From: Thermoanaerobaculia bacterium | Lineage (GTDB): Bacteria; Acidobacteriota; Thermoanaerobaculia; Multivoradales; UBA5704 | Reading direction: 5' to 3' | Assembly (NCBI GenBank): GCA_035628695.1 | Contig: DASPJI010000874.1 | Location: forward strand, 1-37,098 | Length of the DNA stretch: 37,098 nt | In this document: positions 5,559 through 37,098 of the stretch, one piece after another | How positions within the stretch are numbered: the first letter of the stretch is position 1 | Layout: each line of letters begins with the position of its first letter | Translations under genes and position numbers: made by a program | The notes under the pieces: generated by a model | The model's input: the letters and a program-made list of their open reading frames with translations, nothing else | Database searches by the model: none | Told to the model about the DNA's origin: nothing

Positions 5559-7468
5559 ACCCGGAACTGCAGATCGTGGAGCCGCTTGTAGGAGCCGCCC
5601 AGAGCCATGAGCTGTTCGTGGGAGCCCTCCTCGACGATGCGCCCCGCCTCCATCACCGCGATGCGGTCGGCGCGCTGCACGGTCGAGAGGCGGTGGGCGA
5701 TGACCAGCGTCGTGCGCCCCTGCATCAGGTTGTAGAGCGCCTTCTGGACCAGCGCCTCGGACTGGCTGTCGAGGTGGGAGGTGGCCTCGTCGAGGATCAG
5801 GATGGGGGCGTTCTTGAGCAGCGCCCGGGCGATCGCCAGGCGCTGCCGCTGGCCGCCGGACAGCCGCACGCCCGACTCGCCGATCACCGTCTCGTACCCC
5901 TGCGGGAGCTGCATGATGAACTCGTCCGCGTACGCCGCCGCCGCGGCCTCGCGCACCCGCTCCAGCGGCAGGTCGGAGCGCCCGTAGGCGATGTTGTTGC
6001 GGATCGTGTCGTTGAACAGCACCGTGTCCTGGGTGACCATGCCGATCAGCGACCGCAGGCTTTTGAGCTCCAGGTCCCGGATGTCGGTGCCGTCGAGCGC
6101 GATCCGACCTGTGTCGGGGTCGAAGAAGCGCGGCAGCAGGTTGACCATGGTCGACTTGCCGGCGCCCGAGGGGCCCACCAGGGCCACGATCTCGCCGGCG
6201 CGGACGGCGAGGTCCACGTCCCACAGCGCCGGCCGGTCCTCGTAGGCGAAGGAGACGCGCTCGAAGGCGATCCCCTTCTCCACCCGCTCCACCGTCCGCG
6301 CGCCGGGCCGCTGCTCGATGTCGTTGGGGAGCTCCAGGAGGCGGCTCACCCGCTGCCCCGCCGCCGAGGCCTCCTGCAGGATCAGGTTGACCTTGTTCAG
6401 CTTGCGGATCGGGTCGTAGAGCATGTAGAGGGTGAAAAGGAACTGCACGAGCTGCGTCGGCGTCAGCTCCCCGGCGCGGATGCTCTTCCCGGCGTAGATC
6501 AGCAGCGCCGCCGCGCCGAACGCCGCCAGCGACTCGACCACCGGCCCGGAAGCGTGGGTGAGCATCTGCGCCCAGAGGTTGACCCGCAGGTGGCGGCGCG
6601 TCGCCTCGCGGAAGCGGCCGTACTCGAACTCCTCCATGCCGAACGCCTTGACCACGCGGTGGCCGCGGATCCCCTCGGCCATCAGGCTCGCCAGGTCGGC
6701 CATGCGCTCCTGGCTGCGGTGGCTGGTGCGGCGCATCCCCTTGCCGAAGCGGACGATGGGATAGACCAGGACCGGCGCCACCACCAGGGAGATGACCGCG
6801 AGCCGGAAATGGGTGGAGAGCAGCAGGCCGAGCAGGAAGAGAAGGGTGATCGACTGCTGGAAGAGGTCGAGCAGGCGGTTCGACACCGCGTTCTGCATCA
6901 CCGCCACGTCGTTGATGATGCGCGCCACCAGCTCCCCGGACGGGTGCTCGGCGTGGAAGCGGCTCGACTGGCCGAGGATGTGCCAGTAGAGGTCGTTGCG
7001 GATGTCGGTCGTCACCCCCAGGCCGATGTGCTGGAAGGCGTAGCCGGACAGGAAGTCGGCCAGGCTGCGGATCAGGATGACGAGGACGAAGAGCAGGGGG
7101 ACGAAGAAGACCACCTCGTCCGGCCCCACCCCCAGCCGGCGCTTGAGCGATTCGTAGCTGTCGTCGATCTGGTCGGCGACGTCGAAGCGCTTCTTGAGGT
7201 CGTCGAGGAAGGCCGGCTCCCCCGGCGGCCTGGCCGCATCTCCTGCGGCCGCCGCGTCTCCGGCGCTGTCCCCCGAGCCCGGCGAGCCGACGATCCCTCC
7301 CAGCCCGGGCAGCTGGTCGCCGTACTGGAGCACCTCGCCGAAGATCGGGCCGATGAGGAAGCTCAGCCCCGCCATGGTCCCGGCATAGACCACCATCGCC
7401 AGGGCGGCGAGCATCGCCCAGCCCACGTAGCGCCGGATGTAGTGCCAGAAGAAGGCCCGGATGCTCAC
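5555..7468 (-). CDS. msbA: ABC transporter permease/ATPase, lipid A flippase type
   Basis: N-terminal 6-TM exporter domain. Walker A GPSGAGKST, signature LSGGQRQR, Walker B ILILDEATS. Sits between lpxB and DUF374. Confidence 0.85.
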   Translation of the reverse strand: MSIRAFFWHYIRRYVGWAMLAALAMVVYAGTMAGLSFLIGPIFGEVLQYGDQLPGLGGIVGSPGSGDSAGDAAAAGDAARPPGEPAFLDDLKKRFDVADQIDDSYESLKRRLGVGPDEVVFFVPLLFVLVILIRSLADFLSGYAFQHIGLGVTTDIRNDLYWHILGQSSRFHAEHPSGELVARIINDVAVMQNAVSNRLLDLFQQSITLLFLLGLLLSTHFRLAVISLVVAPVLVYPIVRFGKGMRRTSHRSQERMADLASLMAEGIRGHRVVKAFGMEEFEYGRFREATRRHLRVNLWAQMLTHASGPVVESLAAFGAAALLIYAGKSIRAGELTPTQLVQFLFTLYMLYDPIRKLNKVNLILQEASAAGQRVSRLLELPNDIEQRPGARTVERVEKGIAFERVSFAYEDRPALWDVDLAVRAGEIVALVGPSGAGKSTMVNLLPRFFDPDTGRIALDGTDIRDLELKSLRSLIGMVTQDTVLFNDTIRNNIAYGRSDLPLERVREAAAAAYADEFIMQLPQGYETVIGESGVRLSGGQRQRLAIARALLKNAPILILDEATSHLDSQSEALVQKALYNLMQGRTTLVIAHRLSTVQRADRIAVMEAGRIVEEGSHEQLMALGGSYKRLHDLQFRV

Positions 7469-8685
7469 GCCCGCACCCCCTCCGCCGCTTCCCTCGCTCC
7501 GGCATCCACCGGCTCCCCGGAGAAGCCGAGGAAGGCCGCGACCTCCCGCGCCGCCCGGGCGCTGGCGCCCCCCTCGCCCAGGCGGCCGCGCAGCTCGGCC
7601 AGGCCGGCGCGCACCTCCTCGCGCGGGGCGGTCTCGGTCAGCAGGCGGCGGGCCTCGTCGGCGATGCGGTCCGGCTGCGCCGCGCCCTGGAGCAGCTCCG
7701 GCACCACCTGCCGGCCGAGCACCAGGTTCACCAGGCTGTAGTGCGGCAGCCGCACCAGCATCCGCGCCAGCACATAGGTGCCGGTGGCGAGACGATAGAG
7801 CACGACCATGGGGGTCCCGAGGAGCCCGACCTCGAGCGTCGCGGTGCCGGAAGCGCAGAGGGCCAGGTGGGAGCCGGCGATCGCGTCGAAGCGGTCGCGC
7901 GCGATGATCTCCACGCGCTCCACCGGCAGGCCGGCGGCCACGATCTTCTCCTCCAGCAGCTCGCGCGGTACGGACGGTGCCTGGATCAGGCTCACCTGCA
8001 CCGGCAGCTCGAGGGCGATGCGGCGCACCGCCTCCAGCATGGTGGGCAGCAGCGCCTCGATCTCACTGCGCCGCGACCCGGGGAGGAGCGCCAGGCGGAA
8101 CGGCCCCTCCGGCTCCCCCTCCTCCCAGACCTGGGGGAGGCGCGGCACCTCGTCGACCAGCGGATGGCCGACGTGGACCACGTTCACCCCGTGCCCCTGG
8201 TAGAAGGAGGTCTCGAACGGGAAGAGCACCAGCATGCGGTCGACGACCTTGGCGATGGTCTTGACCCGGCCGCGGCGCCAGGCCCAGACCTGGGGGCTGA
8301 TGTAGTAGACCACCGGCACCCCGCGCCGGCGCAGCTCCTTGGCGAGCCGCAGGTTGAAGTCGGGGAAGTCGACGAGCACCGCAGCGCGCGGGCGCCGCCG
8401 GTCCACCTGGCGGAGGATCTCGGCGAAGATCTGCCGCGCCCGGGGGAGGATCTTGAGCACTTCGGTGATCCCCACCACCGAGATCTCGGCGCTGTGCGCC
8501 ACGGCATCGAGGCCGGCCGCCATCAGCTCGTCGCCTCCCAGGCCGAACGTGGAGAGCCCCGGCACCCGGCGGCGCAGCTCGGAAACGAGCCGCGCCGCGT
8601 GGAGGTCCCCGGATGCCTCGCCCGCCACGACCAGGAGGTCGACCCGGAGGTCTGGAGACCTCTCCCCGCCCACCATCGAGGTCAT
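7465..8685 (-). CDS. lpxB: Lipid-A-disaccharide synthase
   Basis: LLVVAGEASGDLHAARL N-terminus plus GT19-like body. ATGA overlap with the msbA start. Confidence 0.9.
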   Translation of the reverse strand: MTSMVGGERSPDLRVDLLVVAGEASGDLHAARLVSELRRRVPGLSTFGLGGDELMAAGLDAVAHSAEISVVGITEVLKILPRARQIFAEILRQVDRRRPRAAVLVDFPDFNLRLAKELRRRGVPVVYYISPQVWAWRRGRVKTIAKVVDRMLVLFPFETSFYQGHGVNVVHVGHPLVDEVPRLPQVWEEGEPEGPFRLALLPGSRRSEIEALLPTMLEAVRRIALELPVQVSLIQAPSVPRELLEEKIVAAGLPVERVEIIARDRFDAIAGSHLALCASGTATLEVGLLGTPMVVLYRLATGTYVLARMLVRLPHYSLVNLVLGRQVVPELLQGAAQPDRIADEARRLLTETAPREEVRAGLAELRGRLGEGGASARAAREVAAFLGFSGEPVDAGAREAAEGVRA

Positions 8686-15649: not shown

Positions 15650-15681
15650 GCGCCAGCCGTCGTACCCGGAGGAAGGACGGC

Positions 15682-15933
15682 CATCCCTCGTGGGGCAGCC
15701 GTTGCCCCGGCAGGAATGACCTTCATTCCTCATGGGGCAGCCATGGCCCCGACAGAAACGGACACCATTCCTGAAGGGGCAGCCACTGCCCCAACAGGAA
15801 TGATCTCCATTCCTCCTGGGGCAGCGACTGCCCCGATAGGAACGCTCTCCATTCCTCGTGGGGCAACGATGGCCCCGACAGGAATGACCACCATTCCTCA
15901 TGGGGCAGCGGCTGCCCCAGGAGGGATGAACCC
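15682..15933. repeat. Tandem array of six 42-bp nested-palindrome (hairpin) units
   Basis: CATTCCT cores at 15724, 15766, 15808, 15850 and 15892, plus CATCCCT at 15682. Unit is CATTCCT-NN-TGGGGCA-loop-TGCCCC-GA-CAGGAATG-linker. There are no spacers between units. Confidence 0.9.
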
Positions 15934-30738: not shown

Positions 30739-32739
30739 TCAACGGGACCGGGGGCTCGCCTGCAGCCGGTCCAGCTTCCGGCGCACCTGCTCGGCGTTGT
30801 CGTCGCCCAGCTCCAGCGCCCGCCGGTACACCTCCAACGCCTTGTCGGTCTGCCCCAACGCCACATACACATCCCCCAGGTGCTCCTGCAGTGTGGCATC
30901 ACCGGGCTCGAGGCGGGCGGCCCGTTCCAGGGCCTCGCGCGCCTGCTCGAAGCGGCCGAGCCGGTAGTAGGCCCAGCCCAGAGAATCGACGTAGGCGCCG
31001 TTGTCCGGCGCGAGGGCGACCGCCCGCCGCGCCAGGGACAGCGCCTCCTCCAGGTTCTCCCCCCGCTCCGCCCAGATATAGCCTAGATAGTTGAGTGCGG
31101 CGTGGAAATCCGGCTGAATCTCGAGCAGCCGGCGGAACAGCGTGATCGCCTCCTGGTGGCGGCCCGTGCGCTCGTAGGCGGTGCCCAGCAGGAACCCCGA
31201 CCCGAGGTCGTCCGGGTGGAGCTGCTGCAGCCGCTGGAGCAGCGGGATCGACGCCTCGTAGCGCTCCGCCCGCTGGTAGGCCTGCGCCGCCGCCAGGATG
31301 GACAGCACGTCCTGGCGGTCGATCGTGGCGGCGCCTCCGGGGGCGACGGCGATCCGGGCGAGCAGCTCCTCGGCCTCCCGCTCCCGGCCGGCGCGCATCA
31401 GCACCTCGGCCCGCTTGCTCACCACCTGCGGCGTGTCGCTGGCGCGGACGAGGAGGCCGAGCGCCTCGTCATAGCGCTTCGCCCGCAGGAGGGCGTCGGC
31501 CTGGAGCAGCAGCGCCTCGGTGCGCACCGCCGGCTCGGCGGCGAGGAGCGGCGCCAGGGCTTGCACCCCCTGGTCCCACTTCTCCATGTCGAACCAGGCC
31601 TGCGCGAGGTCGAGGCGGACGGTGCGCTCCTCCTCGGTCTTCCCCGCCTTGGCGAGCCGTCCGGCGACATCGGCCAGCACGGCCGTGGCCTCCTCGTTCC
31701 GGCCGGCGCGCTGGAGCACCTGGGCCAGGGAGCGCGCCAGGGTGGAGTCGTCCGGCTGCGCCTGGCGCACGCGGATGAGCAGGTCGGCGGCCTCTCCGTT
31801 GCGCCCCTCGGCGGCCAGGACCAGCCCCTTGAGCAGGGACATGCGGCGGTCCCCCGGCTCGGAGCCGAGGAGCGGCTCGACGGTGCGCAACGCGCCCGCG
31901 AGGTCGCCGCTCAGGTAGAGCGCCCAGGCGAGCTGCCGGCCGATCCGCGGGTCGGCCCGCACCGATTCCGGCGCCGCCGACAGCGTCTGCGCCGCCGCCT
32001 GGTTGTCGCCGCGCCGGGATTGCAGGTCGGCGAGCGTCAGCCGCGCCTCCAGCGACTCGGGGGCGAAGGCGAGGAGGTCGCGCAGCGTGCGCTCGGCCTC
32101 CGCCATCTTCTCCGCCCGCATCAGCGCCTCGACGAGGAAGAGATAGACGGTGCGGTTCTGCGGCAGGTTGTGGGAGAGGGCGGAGAGCACCTCGACGCTC
32201 TTCTCCGCCTGCCCCTGGTCGAGGTAGAGGCGGCCGAGGACCAGCGCCATCTGCGGATCGGCCCGCCCCTGACGGTAGACCGCCTCGAAGGCCTCCATCG
32301 CCTTGGCCAGGGCGCCGGGATCCTGCGCCGACAGGTCGAGATAGATGGCGCCCACCGCCCGCAGCACGTCGGGGTTCTCGGGCGCCAGGCGGCGCGCCCG
32401 CTCCACCTTGTCGGTGGCACTGCGCAGCAGCCGCCGCTGCTCGTCCGCCGACTGCGCGGACTGGGCGACGCGGGCGAGGAACTGGGCGTGGTCGACCAGG
32501 ATGTACGGCGCGTCGGGCGCCAGGTCCTCGGCCTTCTCATAGGCCTCCAGCGCCGGCTGCATCTCCCCTTCCGAGGCGAGGGCCTTGGCGATGGCGAACT
32601 GGTACGACGCCTCTTTGGAGAGAGCGGCAGGATCGGAGGGAGCGGCCGCGCCGGCCATGGCCGGCACCAGGGCGCTCCACGACAGCAGGCCAGCGAGCAG
32701 GCGGGCGGCCGGACGGACCATGAGAAACAACCCCTTCAC
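30739..32739 (-). CDS. Tetratricopeptide-repeat protein with N-terminal signal sequence
   Basis: 666 aa of recurring TPR-type A..Y..AL...P repeats, ending in clear TPRs (ALNYLGYIWAERGENLEEALSLARRAVALAPDNGAYVDSLGWAYYRLGRFEQA). Confidence 0.85.
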   Translation of the reverse strand: MKGLFLMVRPAARLLAGLLSWSALVPAMAGAAAPSDPAALSKEASYQFAIAKALASEGEMQPALEAYEKAEDLAPDAPYILVDHAQFLARVAQSAQSADEQRRLLRSATDKVERARRLAPENPDVLRAVGAIYLDLSAQDPGALAKAMEAFEAVYRQGRADPQMALVLGRLYLDQGQAEKSVEVLSALSHNLPQNRTVYLFLVEALMRAEKMAEAERTLRDLLAFAPESLEARLTLADLQSRRGDNQAAAQTLSAAPESVRADPRIGRQLAWALYLSGDLAGALRTVEPLLGSEPGDRRMSLLKGLVLAAEGRNGEAADLLIRVRQAQPDDSTLARSLAQVLQRAGRNEEATAVLADVAGRLAKAGKTEEERTVRLDLAQAWFDMEKWDQGVQALAPLLAAEPAVRTEALLLQADALLRAKRYDEALGLLVRASDTPQVVSKRAEVLMRAGREREAEELLARIAVAPGGAATIDRQDVLSILAAAQAYQRAERYEASIPLLQRLQQLHPDDLGSGFLLGTAYERTGRHQEAITLFRRLLEIQPDFHAALNYLGYIWAERGENLEEALSLARRAVALAPDNGAYVDSLGWAYYRLGRFEQAREALERAARLEPGDATLQEHLGDVYVALGQTDKALEVYRRALELGDDNAEQVRRKLDRLQASPRSR

Positions 32740-32769
32740 AGAGAGAAGGATAGCAGCGGCGCCCGACGC

Positions 32770-32799
32770 TTTACAAGGCTGTCGGGCCGCCTCTATAAT
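32770..32799 (+). promoter_or_regulatory. Candidate sigma-70 promoter TTTACA-18 bp-TATAAT for the MshEN-domain gene
   Basis: TTTACA at 32770-32775 and TATAAT at 32794-32799, in the divergent intergenic region. Confidence 0.5.
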
Positions 32800-32884
32800 G
32801 TCCGCCTTGCTGTTAAGTGGCGAAAAAAGAATAAGTTAGCCGGGGTTCTCCAGAGCAGGGGCAGGTATCGAGGCAGGCGGACGC

Positions 32885-34225
32885 ATGGGCAAGCTGGGAC
32901 AGCTGTTGGTCGCTCGGGGCTGGATCACCGTCCAGCAGCTCACCCGTGCCCTCAAGAACCAGAGCGTGGTCGGGGGCCGGCTGGGCACCTGCCTGCTCGA
33001 GATGGACGCCCTGAGCGAGGAGACGCTGCTCAAGGCGCTCGCCGAGCAGCTCGGCGTGCCGTCCGCCGGCCCCGACGACCTGCGCGGGGTCCCCACCGAG
33101 GTGCTGGAGCTGATCCCGGAGAAGCTGGCGCGCCGCTGCCGCGCCGTGCCCTTCCAGGTGATGGGCAGCCGGGTCGACGTGGCGATGATGGACCCGCGCA
33201 ACATCTCCTGCCAGGACGAGCTGGCCTTCGCCTCCGGCAAGCGGATCAAGGTCCACATCGCCCACGAGCTGCGGCTCTTCGAGGCGCTGGAGCGCTACTA
33301 CCGGGAGGAGATGCCGTCGCGGCTGACGCTGCTCCTCGACCGCCTGAACCGGGCGCGCTACATGTGGGAGAAGCCGGCCGCCGAGCCGGACCTGGCCTCG
33401 GCGGCTCCCGTCCGCCGGCTGGACGACCTCTACGTCACGACGCCGTCCCTGGCGCCGGCGCTGCCCGGGCCGTCCCTGCCGCCCTCGGCACGCGCGGCGC
33501 GGCCGGTGACCGCTCCGCTCCGCCCCGCGACGCCGGCTGCCGCCGCCGCGCCGGCCGCGCCGGCCGCGGAGAGCGTGCCCGCGCCGGCGCCCCGGGTCAT
33601 CCCGCGGAGCCTGACGCTCACCGCGGAGGAGCGGGCCGAGCTCGGCTTCCTCAAGGAGGAGCCACCGCCGTCTCTGCCGCCGCCGGCACCGCCGGCTCCG
33701 GAAGCGCCGCCGCGCCCGAAGCCCTCCTCCACCACCCTCGAGGAGGTGGAGTCGGCCTTCGCCACGGCCAACGAGCGCGAGGAGGTGGCGGAGATCCTGG
33801 TCGCGTTCCTGGCGCGCAGCTACCGGCGCGTGGCGCTCTTCCAGGCCGGCAAGGACAAGGTGAGCGGCTGGCTGGCGCAGGGAGAGGGGATCGAGCGCAA
33901 GGTTTTCGAGCAGTTCTCCGTGGGTTTCGACCAGCCGTCGCTGTTCCTCAACCTGCGGCAGGGCGCCGGCCTCCACATGGGGCCGATGCCGCCGATGCCG
34001 GCGCACCGGGCGCTGGCGCGGGCCTGGGGCGGGGAGCTGCCCAAGGACTGCGTAATGCTGCCCATCCGGATGAAGGACCGCCTCGTGGCCGTGCTGTACG
34101 CGGACGGCGGGCGCAAAGGGGTCGCGGGGGTGGGTCTCCCGCAGTTGCAGAGACTGACGGCCGCCACCGCGGCGGCTTTCGAGCGGTGTATCCTCCACAA
34201 GAAACGCGGTGCGTCCAAGTCTTGA
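32885..34225 (+). CDS. MshEN (GspE N-terminal) domain protein with Pro/Ala-rich linker and GAF-like C-terminal domain
   Basis: N-terminus carries two tandem 24-aa motifs, KLGQLLVARGWITVQQLTRALKNQ and RLGTCLLEMDALSEETLLKALAEQ, separated by 5 aa. The rest of a T2SSE_N-like fold follows (VPFQVMGSRVDVAMMDP). Confidence 0.75.
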   Translation: MGKLGQLLVARGWITVQQLTRALKNQSVVGGRLGTCLLEMDALSEETLLKALAEQLGVPSAGPDDLRGVPTEVLELIPEKLARRCRAVPFQVMGSRVDVAMMDPRNISCQDELAFASGKRIKVHIAHELRLFEALERYYREEMPSRLTLLLDRLNRARYMWEKPAAEPDLASAAPVRRLDDLYVTTPSLAPALPGPSLPPSARAARPVTAPLRPATPAAAAAPAAPAAESVPAPAPRVIPRSLTLTAEERAELGFLKEEPPPSLPPPAPPAPEAPPRPKPSSTTLEEVESAFATANEREEVAEILVAFLARSYRRVALFQAGKDKVSGWLAQGEGIERKVFEQFSVGFDQPSLFLNLRQGAGLHMGPMPPMPAHRALARAWGGELPKDCVMLPIRMKDRLVAVLYADGGRKGVAGVGLPQLQRLTAATAAAFERCILHKKRGASKS

Positions 34226-34244
34226 GATCCCGGGTTCCGGTTTG

Positions 34245-34273
34245 TTGACCTCCCCCGGGCCCATTGCTAGACT
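34245..34273 (+). promoter_or_regulatory. Candidate sigma-70 promoter TTGACC-17 bp-TAGACT for the HU/IHF gene
   Basis: TTGACC at 34245-34250 and TAGACT at 34268-34273. GGAG lies 5 nt before ATG 34295. Confidence 0.5.
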
Positions 34274-34294
34274 CGGCGCCGCTTCGGAGCGGAC

Positions 34295-34561
34295 ATGATC
34301 AAGTCGGACATCGTAGACCGCGTTGCGGAGATCACGGACGTGCCCCGGGTGAAGGCCGCCCAGGCGGTCGACACCATCATCGAGGCGATGAAGAACGCCC
34401 TGTGCGACGGCAAGCGCATCGAGCTGCGCGGCTTCGGGGTGTTCCAGGTGCGCGACCGCAAAAAGGGTGTGGGCCGCAACCCGAAGACCGGCGTCGAAGT
34501 CGCCATCTCCCCCGGCAAGACGGTGCGCTTCAAGCCGGGCAAGGACCTGAAGAATCTCTGA
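34295..34561 (+). CDS. HU/IHF family DNA-binding protein (IHF-alpha-like)
   Basis: MIKSDIVDRVAE...IELRGFGVFQVRDRKKGVGRNPKTGVEVAISPGKTVRFKPGKDLK. Confidence 0.9.
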   Translation: MIKSDIVDRVAEITDVPRVKAAQAVDTIIEAMKNALCDGKRIELRGFGVFQVRDRKKGVGRNPKTGVEVAISPGKTVRFKPGKDLKNL

Positions 34562-34621
34562 GCCTCCCCATCCCCCGGATCCGCCCCGGGAGCAGGACGG
34601 CGGGCTCCCTGCCCCGCCCTG

Positions 34622-34648
34622 GGCTCCGCCATCTCCACCAGCGGAGCC
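34622..34648 (+). terminator. Hairpin GGCTCCGC-N11-GCGGAGCC after the HU/IHF gene
   Basis: 8-bp perfect stem about 60 nt after the stop. No U tract. Confidence 0.25.
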
Positions 34649-34673
34649 CCGTCCGTTCTACCCACCGGTCGAG

Positions 34674-35687
34674 GTGCTGCCGCCGTCGGGCACCACGCCG
34701 GTGCCCGGGATCCACGTCCCCGGCGAGGAGCGCCCGTACCGGCCGCGCTACCTGCGCGCCGCCATCCTCTTCCTGCTGACCTTCTTCACCACCACCACCC
34801 TGGGGCCGGCGGTCTATCTCTGGACCCGCACCGACATGACCACGGACCTGCTGCCGTGGATGTCGCCCGGGGTGATCCGGGGGGTCTGGAGCGATCCGTT
34901 CCTCCTGCGGCTCGGCCTGTCGTTCTCGGTGCCGGTGCTGCTGATCCTCCTCGCCCACGAGCTCGGGCACTACATCGCCTGCCGGCGCTACGGCCTGTCG
35001 GCGACGCTCCCCTACTTCCTGCCGCTGCCGCTGATGCTCGGCACGCTGGGCGCCTTCATCCGCATCCGCTCGCCGATCCGCGGCAAGCGGGAGCTGTTCG
35101 ACGTGGGCGTCGCCGGCCCCCTGGCCGGCTTCGTGATGCTGGTCCCCTTCCTTCTCTATGGGGTGGCGAGGTCGGAACCGGCTCTGGTCGAGCCCGGCAT
35201 CGGCTCGCTCCTCGTCCCCGGCCACTGCCTGGCGCTGGACCTCGCGGTCCGGCTGTTCCACGGCCCGCTGGAGGAGGGGATGGTGATGAACTTCCATCCC
35301 TTCGCCCTGGCCGCCTGGTTCGGCCTGCTGGCGACTGCGATCAACCTGATCCCCCTGGGCCAGCTCGACGGCGGCCACATCCTCTACGCGGCGGCGGGGC
35401 GCTGGCAGAGGCGGCTGGCGGTGCCCATCTGGCTGCTGCTCGCCGTCGCCGGCTTCTCCTGGTCGGGCTGGTGGGTCTGGTGCGTGATGGTCCTGCTGAT
35501 GGGCCTCTTCCATCCGCCGGTGCGGAACGAGCGCCAGCCCCTGGACCGCAAGCGGATCCTCCTCGCCTGGGTCGCCCTGGCGGTGCTGATCCTCTCCTTC
35601 ATCCCTCGCGGCGTGGAGGAGTACCAGACCCCGACGCGCCCCGGGCCGGGCGAGGGCTCGGGGGTGTTCGTGGCGCTCCGGCCGTAG
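34674..35687 (+). CDS. Site-2 protease family (M50) membrane metalloprotease
   Basis: HELGHY zinc motif within a polytopic membrane protein, and NLIPLGQLDGGHI (the second M50 motif). GTG start. Confidence 0.85.
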   Translation: MLPPSGTTPVPGIHVPGEERPYRPRYLRAAILFLLTFFTTTTLGPAVYLWTRTDMTTDLLPWMSPGVIRGVWSDPFLLRLGLSFSVPVLLILLAHELGHYIACRRYGLSATLPYFLPLPLMLGTLGAFIRIRSPIRGKRELFDVGVAGPLAGFVMLVPFLLYGVARSEPALVEPGIGSLLVPGHCLALDLAVRLFHGPLEEGMVMNFHPFALAAWFGLLATAINLIPLGQLDGGHILYAAAGRWQRRLAVPIWLLLAVAGFSWSGWWVWCVMVLLMGLFHPPVRNERQPLDRKRILLAWVALAVLILSFIPRGVEEYQTPTRPGPGEGSGVFVALRP

Positions 35688-35696
35688 CCCCCACCC

Positions 35697-35918
35697 TCCA
35701 GACGCTTCGGATCGCGTCCGAATGCTTCGGACGCGATCCGAAGCGGCCGGGAAGCGATCCGGGTCTCTCGGACGGCATCCAGACGGCCTGGACGAGATCC
35801 GAAGCGCTCGGGAAGAATCCAGGCCTTCCGGATCACGTCCAAACGCTCTGGACGCGATCCGCAGCGTTCGGATGCCGTCCACGGCGCCCGGACGCGCTCC
35901 GGCGGGCTCGGGAGCCGG
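35697..35918. repeat. About 11 tandem copies of a 20-bp (one 21-bp) unit, consensus TCCGAAGCGCTCGGACGCGA
   Basis: Units start at 35697, 35717, 35737, 35758, 35778, 35798, 35818, 35838, 35858, 35878 and 35898. TCCRA and TCGGA-like pentamers alternate about every 10 bp. Confidence 0.85.
35703..35745 (+). terminator. Perfect 20-bp-stem hairpin (3-nt loop) 16 nt after the M50 stop; candidate terminator
   Basis: CGCTTCGGATCGCGTCCGAA-TGC-TTCGGACGCGATCCGAAGCG, verified base by base. No U tract. Confidence 0.4.
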
Positions 35919-36052
35919 CCCCGGCTGCCGAATCGGCTCGGCGCCGGCTGGATCGAGGATCTTGACGCAGTTGCTCAAAGCACCCAAGATAGGCGGCGCC
36001 ACTTGCTCCACAGGTCCACCCTGATACCCGGGTACCACCGGAAGGAGGCCTC

Positions 36053-36898
36053 ATGCCGGGAGACCGTCGTCGCCTGTCCACGCTCCGCTCCGCCGTCGCG
36101 CTGCCGCTGCTCTCCGCCCTGCTGCTCGCCGCCTCGGGTTGTGCCACCACCCGCCAGCCCCGCAGCCTGGAGGAGCTCTGGAAGGAGTACGAGCAGGCGG
36201 TGGAGGCCGCCAAGTACCCGGCGCCCGGCCGCGTCTCGCGCAGCCTGATCGCCATCACGACGTTCACGCCGGGACTGGTATGGGACGAGAGCGGGCAGAA
36301 GGTCCTCATGGCGACGTGGACCAAGGCGAAGTACTACACGGGACAGCCGCCCTACGAGACGACGGTCCCGGCGCCGGTGTGGCTGACCGCCGTGCCGTTC
36401 CTCCAAGGGTTCTGCCAGCGGAGCGGGCTGCAGGGCGAGTCCCTCCGGGTCCGGCTGGCCGAGCGGCTCGGGATGCCTCCTGACAGCGCCAACGACGTCT
36501 TCGTGCAGATGTGGGTCGACCCGCAGGACTTCTTCCGTCCCTGCCCGGACCCGGAGGTCAACGACAGCCAGTGCCAGGTGAACCTCACCACCGGTCCGGT
36601 GGACCGGTCGGCCGACTGTCCCTGGAGCGCCGCCCTGGCCGGCCAGGTCTCCGGCAACTTCGTGTCCGTGACCCAGAGCCAGATCGAGTGGATGTGCAGG
36701 AACTGGGAGAAATCCTACCCGGCCGGCGAGCCGCGCAAGAGCTATCCATGGACGGCCCTCGGCTACACCTACGACTGGGGGGCGAAGAGCTTCTACGGCG
36801 AGAGCGAGTTCGTCCTCCCGCCCGACTCCACGGTCACCGTCCAGTCCATCACTCCGATGGACGCGTACTGCGCCCGCGCCGGCTCGCGCGCGCGCTGA
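36053..36898 (+). CDS. Lipoprotein of unknown function
   Basis: GGAAGGAGG 5 nt upstream of the ATG. Signal peptide with lipobox LAASGC. 281 aa containing several Cys. Confidence 0.7.
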   Translation: MPGDRRRLSTLRSAVALPLLSALLLAASGCATTRQPRSLEELWKEYEQAVEAAKYPAPGRVSRSLIAITTFTPGLVWDESGQKVLMATWTKAKYYTGQPPYETTVPAPVWLTAVPFLQGFCQRSGLQGESLRVRLAERLGMPPDSANDVFVQMWVDPQDFFRPCPDPEVNDSQCQVNLTTGPVDRSADCPWSAALAGQVSGNFVSVTQSQIEWMCRNWEKSYPAGEPRKSYPWTALGYTYDWGAKSFYGESEFVLPPDSTVTVQSITPMDAYCARAGSRAR

Positions 36899-36928
36899 GC
36901 GGCACGCGCCTCGCATAACGTCCTGGTC

Positions 36929-36955
36929 CCACCCCTCGGCCCCTCCGAGGGGTGG
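36929..36955 (+). terminator. Hairpin CCACCCCTCGG-CCCCT-CCGAGGGGTGG after the lipoprotein gene
   Basis: 11-bp perfect stem with a 5-nt loop, about 30 nt after the stop. Confidence 0.4.
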
Positions 36956-37025
36956 TGCTAGGATGCCGCCCTCCCGCTCCGCCGGAGCGGTTTCCCACCT
37001 TCTACGACCAAAGACGGATATCGCT

Positions 37026-37098
37026 GTGCAACCTGGAAGAGAACGACAGCTCGTGACCGCCTCGGTGATGCTGGGCATGTTCCTGGCCGCGCTCGACC
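37026..37098 (+). CDS. Start of a probable MFS (DHA2/EmrB-like) transporter, truncated by the window end
   Basis: My translation is VQPGRERQLVTASVMLGMFLAALD... The MLGxFxAxLD pattern is typical of TM1 in DHA2 MFS exporters. Start codon is uncertain (GTG 37026 or 37053). Confidence 0.35.
   Translation, partial: MQPGRERQLVTASVMLGMFLAALD

Follow-up and report, generated by a model that had tools for sequence, protein, structure and literature searches.

A compact array of short palindromic repeats at the end of a gene raises the question of whether it was made at that place and serves the genes beside it, or whether it belongs to a repeat family scattered through the genome. Such an array lies in the window studied here (the whole stretch of DNA analysed, 37,098 nt), which comes from a Thermoanaerobaculia MAG representing an uncultured soil acidobacterium (5.94 Mb in 906 contigs, 70.3% GC, 93%-complete). 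The initial annotation of this DNA had described ~220 bp of about 11 units of 20 bp between an M50 protease gene and a lipoprotein gene, with a perfect 20-bp stem at the start and decay of the later units. It judged the array to be far more than a simple terminator, listed a protein-binding lattice, a highly structured RNA and an expansion-prone minisatellite as options, and proposed that several families of tandem palindromic arrays exist in the genome, each generated locus by locus. The features of the region are the following.

34674..35687, + strand: Peptidase_M50, site-2-protease-like (ORF; PF02163, E = 3.8e-17; GC3 = 0.94)
35697..35957, - strand (family orientation): 20-bp-unit array (register read directly and profile match)
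35703..35745, no strand: perfect hairpin with arms 35703-35722 and 35726-35745, a 20-bp stem and a 3-nt loop, TGC
35958..36052, + strand: spacer without repeats, with TTGACG at ~35962 and a Shine-Dalgarno-like run, GGAAGGAGG, at ~36040
36053..36898, + strand: 281-aa protein with a signal-peptide/lipobox-like N-terminus and no Pfam family (ORF, Pfam search)

Both flanking genes are as proposed initially, the first through its PF02163 match and the second through its lipobox-like start; an exact-protein look-up of the 36053-36898 product returned no record. The gap between the M50 gene and the next ORF is 365 bp, and the array begins 9 nt beyond the M50 stop codon. Its pattern is TCC-N9-GGA-N5. 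The array comprises 11 clear units at 35697-35917 of the form TCCrr-N5-yyGGA-N5, one of them 21 bp long, in agreement with the size and unit number first described, and the decay of later units was also recovered as two decayed units after 35917 that extend to ~35957. Self-identity of the array is 0.50, 0.54 and 0.49 at lags of 20, 40 and 60 bp, respectively, compared with a background of ~0.25. TRF at default stringency reports the first two units only, because the units have diverged. The perfect stem is real: 35703-35722 is the exact reverse complement of 35726-35745, and the hairpin starts 15 nt past the M50 stop codon. Folded as RNA, 35690-35960 has an MFE of -173 kcal/mol (z = -7.7 relative to 200 dinucleotide shuffles). 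Window positions 31674-36496 recur with 0 differences in an independent assembly of run SRR7003764 (Logan) and, therefore, the array is not an assembly artefact. A scan of 35500-36150 for consensus promoters and terminators gave 0 promoter-like and 0 terminator-like sites, and no U-tract follows the hairpins of the array. The view that this is far more than a simple terminator holds.

The genome-wide search that the initial annotation had suggested, for this unit and for other tandem arrays, revealed ~40 arrays with ~450 units of the same family in the host genome. Using the window array as a blastn query, more than 30 other contigs were matched at 67-80% identity. A periodic scan for four phased TCC-N9-GGA-N5 units detected 36 arrays in the genome versus 0 in the block-shuffled genome. 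From 23 clear copies, oriented and aligned, we built a profile of 261 positions, and nhmmer found 40 loci with it. The window copy matches this profile at 35939-35696 on the minus strand, from HMM position 14 to 257 of 261 (122.5 bits, E = 2e-35), compared with 70.6 bits on the plus strand. It thus represents a worn copy of nearly full length, without recognisable C units (see below). It is also the only copy with a 20-bp perfect stem, the longest perfect stem in the other 39 arrays being 5-12 bp.

The oriented alignment and a unit-type matrix indicate that the order of units is common to the copies. The element is ~260 bp long and consists of 13 dyad-symmetric 20-bp units, namely three head units, three A-B-C triplets and one tail unit. 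The consensus of each unit type is given below.

Head unit (first three units of the element): TCCGGACGCCGCGGATsCCr
A unit (triplet): TCCGGAsGsCCGGGAAGCTT
B unit (triplet): CCCGrrCGCTyCGGATCGCG
C unit (triplet): TCCrrTTCAAnCGGATGGAk

The overall consensus of 450 units, TCCGGrsssyCCGGAyGsCr, is symmetric about two centres 10 bp apart, and a sequence-only model of the 60-nt A-B-C module has 84 matches in the host genome. The mean period is 20.08 bp, with 51 of the 450 units measuring 19 or 21 bp. Arrays are 200-340 bp long (median ~255) and contain 10-19 units (median 13), and single units never occur; the ~260-bp array is a discrete element rather than a free-running minisatellite. The copies are 50-83% identical (mean pairwise identity 64%), and are thus old or fast-evolving and do not reflect a recent burst. 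In the alignment of 34 copies, conservation of the CC/GG columns is 90-100% in each of the 13 units, whereas interior columns reach 40-80%; part of this difference may be inflation, as the arrays were found by a TCC/GGA pattern and the alignments anchored on those columns. Taken at face value, this conservation would represent a constraint on specific bases that is not accompanied by covariation and recurs every 20.08 bp on average.

A second family supports the proposal that the genome contains several tandem palindromic array families. The 42-bp (2 x 21) hairpin array at 15.7 kb of the window (15654-15929) has 9 full copies in the genome, of 193-299 bp (median ~263). It belongs to the same total-length class as the 20-bp family and its sequence is unrelated to the 20-bp unit; a total length of ~260 bp is common to several unrelated families.

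We then placed the copies in their gene context with a crude GC3-based gene caller, which reproduces the genes of the window. According to these calls, all arrays are intergenic, in ~12 cases between tandem genes, in 7 between convergent genes and in 0-2 between divergent genes. The distance to a gene 3' end is at most 50 nt at 21 of the 36 well-scoring loci, a preference to be read as a tendency given the small numbers and the crude gene caller. Overlap of a few bases with the stop codon occurs in some arrays, and in tandem contexts the array is closer to the stop codon in 9 of 12 cases. With respect to transcription of the abutting gene, the element has the same orientation in 12 cases and the opposite one in 8-9; hence no orientation bias relative to transcription is seen among arrays with called neighbours. 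The junctions of the arrays are heterogeneous, with no target-site duplications, no sharp ends and no terminal inverted repeats beyond the symmetry of the units. Motifs in the flanks are common to subsets of arrays only and correspond to separate repeat families.

Other repeats were noticed in the same gaps. A G/C-run repeat (CCAGGGGGGGAGGCACCACC ... CCCCGCTCCCTCCC) directly adjoins six arrays in the host genome (G000 contigs C103, C255, C263, C337, C367 and C813). Outside the window, a second abundant repeat is present in ~47-50 copies, a ~130-nt three-hairpin element starting with ...TTGACAACTGAATCGTGA-GGGGCGCCGCC..GGCCGCGCCCC-..CCTCCG..CAGGAGG..GAGGCGGAGG..CCTCCGCCTC and found at G000 C359:15713 (L058, ~position 334), C714:5045 (L059), C351:2540, C459:3844, C143:1937 and ~45 other sites. 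It gave no match in an Rfam search. At 4-6 loci it adjoins the tail of the most divergent 20-bp arrays, 8-23 nt away, and one copy is followed by a Y1 transposase ORF after 131 nt. Intergenic gaps in the host genome thus seem to accumulate several repeat families together.

Comparison with relatives shows that the array is not conserved at this locus. In 11 relatives where the HU-M50 synteny is kept, it is missing 3' of the M50 gene. In the same-genus genome G001 and in another Thermoanaerobaculia MAG (L014), the M50 gene is directly followed by a convergent dtd and then by ssb, and none of ten further contigs with an identical HU protein and the order MshEN-HU-M50 carries the 20-bp family 3' of M50. 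Absence of the array in close relatives had been named beforehand as one half of what would refute the initial reading, and it was observed in G001, in L014 and at the ten HU-M50 loci. Synteny breaks at the array, as window positions 35688-37098 continue with the Pfam-less protein and not with dtd-ssb; the gene at 36053-36898 sits in a segment missing at the same position in relatives. In the host, dtd-ssb is located on another contig (G000 C872:1-1400), behind a putative small toxin-antitoxin pair, and thus the array marks the edge of an inserted, variable segment. At the same spot, one of these ten contigs (JGI 3300077288; L049:7314-7569) contains an array of unrelated sequence, with six hairpin units of 42 bp (2 x 21; GGGCTGCCGTCGCCCGCGCTTGAGCGGTCACCGCCCCGGCTT) and 256 bp in total, which starts 26 nt past the M50 stop codon. 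In three other contigs, gene-free gaps of 550-890 bp follow the M50 gene (L048:7300-7920, L051:7320-8200 and L053 ~7320-7860), with recurring CATTCCCC / GGGAATG motifs and a conserved TTGACAAGCC...TTGACAATCGATG stretch; these gaps could be another repeat or RNA locus.

The family itself also differs between species. G001 harbours at least five arrays that are related to the 20-bp family yet distinct from it, built on a 41-bp super-unit and lacking the C unit. For one of its array loci, the corresponding region of the host genome contains no array, and a comparison of filled and empty orthologous sites with G001 yielded no clean pair, the loci being rearranged. In sister genomes, the 60-nt A-B-C model gave partial A-B matches only, in a handful of them. 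The looser pattern (CCG-N7-CGG-N7)x5 matched 20 of 91 sister genomes, where the units are very different (e.g. CCGAAGCTTACGGCG..., CCGTCGTACGCGGAGGCAGA and CCGGAGCGTGCGGCGGACTG), the period is 19-21 bp, the super-period 40 or 60 bp and the array length 110-310 bp; at a stricter pattern setting, 2 of 250 genomes elsewhere in the phylum were matched. Scanning metagenomes for the right junction of the window array gave 0 matches, and a scan for the C unit found arrays in Ga0196965 only, the other three matches being chance 20-mers. The family is, in summary, intergenic, mostly located just past stop codons and in either orientation, and different between species, and relatives lack its array at the locus studied here.

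These properties recall several known repeat systems. REPs are imperfect palindromes of 20-40 bp, multi-copy and extragenic, which occur mainly between unidirectional or convergent genes and are often reiterated in clusters able to fold into larger structures; the GTAG tetranucleotide, unpaired at one end of the palindrome, is conserved in >90% of the members of most GTAG REP families, and REP/BIME have been proposed to act in termination, in stabilising mRNA 3' ends and in supercoiling (Di Nocera et al. 2013, PMC3733652). Tagged REPs also flank a RAYT gene, which encodes a Y1 HUH transposase. The 20-bp family resembles them in its short, symmetric, multi-copy units, its intergenic location and its preference for tandem or convergent genes. 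However, it occurs in fixed blocks of ~13 units with an ordered three-unit super-repeat. A GTAG tag was found in 5 of 450 units, at no fixed position, and CGTC does not exceed 15% of units wherever it occurs in the unit (position 8 in 66 and position 19 in 55, mirrored by GACG). The host genome encodes five paralogous ORFs of 320-350 aa with a PF01797 domain (Y1_Tnp, IS200-like HUH; G000 C682, C296, C586, C506 and C143; L009-L013). None of the five is located on an array contig, their contigs have no HMM match and their flanks contain no units. In BIMEs, REPs alternate in orientation and are joined by distinct linkers. The orientation of single units cannot be defined here because they are self-symmetric about the two centres, and the mosaic that they form is an ordered A-B-C one.

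BrickBuilt of Porphyromonas gingivalis is a minisatellite inside a MITE, with 19 intergenic copies, in which spacer-less 23-nt units predicted to form long stems and varying in number from 1 to 22.8 are combined with leader and tail modules carrying terminal inverted repeats (Klein et al. 2015, PMC4596501). The likeness lies in spacer-less tandem units of ~20 nt at many intergenic loci, and the difference in the narrow number of units here (10-19), their double dyad symmetry and the lack of a common leader or tail. The pneumococcal BOX is a modular interspersed intergenic repeat, boxA-(boxB)n-boxC, with a reiterated internal module of ~45 bp and a strong predicted RNA structure. The 20-bp family shares this modular intergenic character, the reiterated module and the strong predicted structure, but is periodic throughout, with a unit of 20 bp and without distinct non-periodic terminal modules. 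Tandem repeat families spread over tens of intergenic loci in one genome are also seen with the MIRU of Mycobacterium tuberculosis, whose units are 40-100 bp long, not palindromic, variable in copy number between strains and able to carry small ORFs, and with the tandem STRR and LTRR of cyanobacteria, the STRR units being heptamers. Hairpin-arm cassettes around PF05635 or GIY-YIG genes were considered and rejected, as only a sub-threshold PF05635 match on an array-free contig and uvrC were found. With neither tags nor a RAYT, and no terminal modules, the family therefore does not show the defining features of a tagged REP, a BOX or a BrickBuilt MITE; it still shares the general nature of REP, BOX and BrickBuilt repeats. 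The array in the window is most probably a decayed, near full-length copy of a ~260-bp non-coding interspersed repeat element of the REP/BIME or BrickBuilt kind, and the family is a new, species-restricted one within the well-known class of interspersed palindromic intergenic repeats.

This reading has to be weighed against others that the same DNA suggests. A structured non-coding RNA, acting as an sRNA, as a riboregulator of the flanking genes or as a protein sponge of the CsrB/RsmZ type, would fit the GGA found every 20 nt on both strands and the very low predicted folding energy. However, the best Rfam score in the window region was 27 bits against a gathering score of 90 and consisted of miRNA-hairpin noise only, and seven other loci gave no Rfam match. 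Covariation within units was weak: among 399 units, positions 4/12 are Watson-Crick in 56% versus 49% in shuffles and positions 5/11 show no excess, while G-T and A-C combinations are equally common, so that no G-U/A-C asymmetry is seen. Mutual information over 81 A-B-C modules returned register shifts, and not base pairs, as top pairs. The MFE of native arrays is only slightly better than that of unit-permuted arrays (mean z = -0.9) and equals that of arrays of random pool units (z = +0.1); the ability to fold thus follows generically from unit symmetry, and no particular fold appears to be under selection. A CsrB-like GGA sponge was excluded, since the predicted folds pair every GGA with UCC and no csrA (PF02599) was found in the 93%-complete genome. 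Considering also the random orientation of the element relative to neighbouring genes, we regard the structured RNA of the initial annotation as very unlikely. A minisatellite (VNTR) made in place by slippage of a terminator hairpin would account for tandem, diverged units and for a first pair that looks recently homogenised into a perfect hairpin, yet ~40 loci share the same head-plus-(A-B-C)x3 order and are of similar length, with unit numbers clustering tightly around 13. Moreover, units of one type resemble each other to the same degree regardless of where in an array or at which locus they lie, and the array therefore did not originate here. Expansion at this locus is thus a poor fit and a highly improbable origin, and the idea that arrays of this unit arise locus by locus has to be given up. 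As for a protein-coding role, as a C-terminal extension of the M50 protein or as a repeat protein, long open frames do cross the region on both strands, as expected at 70% GC; however, the M50 frame ends at 35687, a period of 20 bp is not a multiple of 3, the 19/21-bp units shift the frame and the arrays lie between GC3-supported genes, which leaves this possibility with next to no probability.

A functional protein-binding lattice on double-stranded DNA has more in its favour. In this model, a dimeric protein would bind TCC/GGA half-sites every 20 bp, that is, every two helical turns, over ~260 bp at ~40 sites, with a role in nucleoid structuring or supercoiling (gyrase-like, as for BIME-2) or as an insulator. 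It would explain CC/GG conservation that persists despite ~64% identity and without covariation, the mean period close to 20 bp, and the narrow length that recurs in the 42-bp family and in the 42-bp array of a relative. The independence of orientation and transcription, the equal frequency of G-U and A-C combinations, and the presence of arrays with a 19-21-bp period and other units in many sister genomes but rarely elsewhere in the phylum also point in this direction. However, array positions are not conserved between species, which is odd for a chromosome-organising site, and the measure of conservation may be biased by the way arrays were found and aligned. Furthermore, the same pattern could come from recognition by a mobilising enzyme rather than from a host function, and no candidate protein was found, which makes such a lattice unlikely on balance. 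A broader proposal would see in these arrays an undescribed class of elements in Thermoanaerobaculia, made of blocks of ~250-290 bp with 12-13 GC-clamped hairpin units at 20-21 bp, in several sequence-unrelated families of one overall length, such as the 20-bp and 42-bp families and those of sister genomes, with a dedicated protein reader of the CC/GG skeleton, and forming a phased lattice at gene ends that has a cellular role (transcription boundary, supercoil handling or chromosome organisation). We consider this proposal improbable at present.

Returning to the array as a copy of an interspersed repeat, we propose that the element spread as a whole unit, by a transposition or recombination route, and that it would persist where it is least harmful, at gene 3' ends. 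Hallmarks of mobilisation or its machinery (target duplications, termini, flanking Y1 genes) were not found, and plasmid and phage collections contained no match to the element. If the M50 mRNA is transcribed through the array, its 3' tail would fold into long GC-rich duplexes, the first being the 20-bp perfect stem 15 nt past the stop codon. These structures could be an obstacle that makes RNA polymerase stall or that stops 3'-to-5' exonucleases, a role proposed for REP/BIME, and the most likely candidate effect at this locus is that the hairpins act as a barrier where the M50 transcript ends. For the perfection of this first hairpin, the simplest explanation would be that a quasi-palindrome was recently corrected by local template switching. 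Finally, the near-invariant TCC/GGA every 20 bp suggests a putative sequence-specific protein reader, either a mobilising enzyme or a DNA-binding protein; the CC/GG constraint and the common ~260-bp length, both read from sequence, are what such a reader would produce, and hint at its existence.

For annotation, the gap in the window and ~40 similar gaps are best labelled as one interspersed repeat family rather than as locus-specific regulators of the M50 gene or its neighbour. In uncultured Thermoanaerobaculia, several unrelated families converge on ~13 hairpin units, 20-21-bp phasing, ~260 bp and gene 3' ends, and simple selfish decay accounts neither for this convergence nor for the near-invariant CC/GG skeleton that accompanies it. 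Were there a protein reader, the arrays would constitute a natural and tractable phased protein-DNA (or hairpin) lattice, and would give access to the formation of transcript 3' ends in high-GC bacteria, which to our knowledge lack canonical U-tract terminators.
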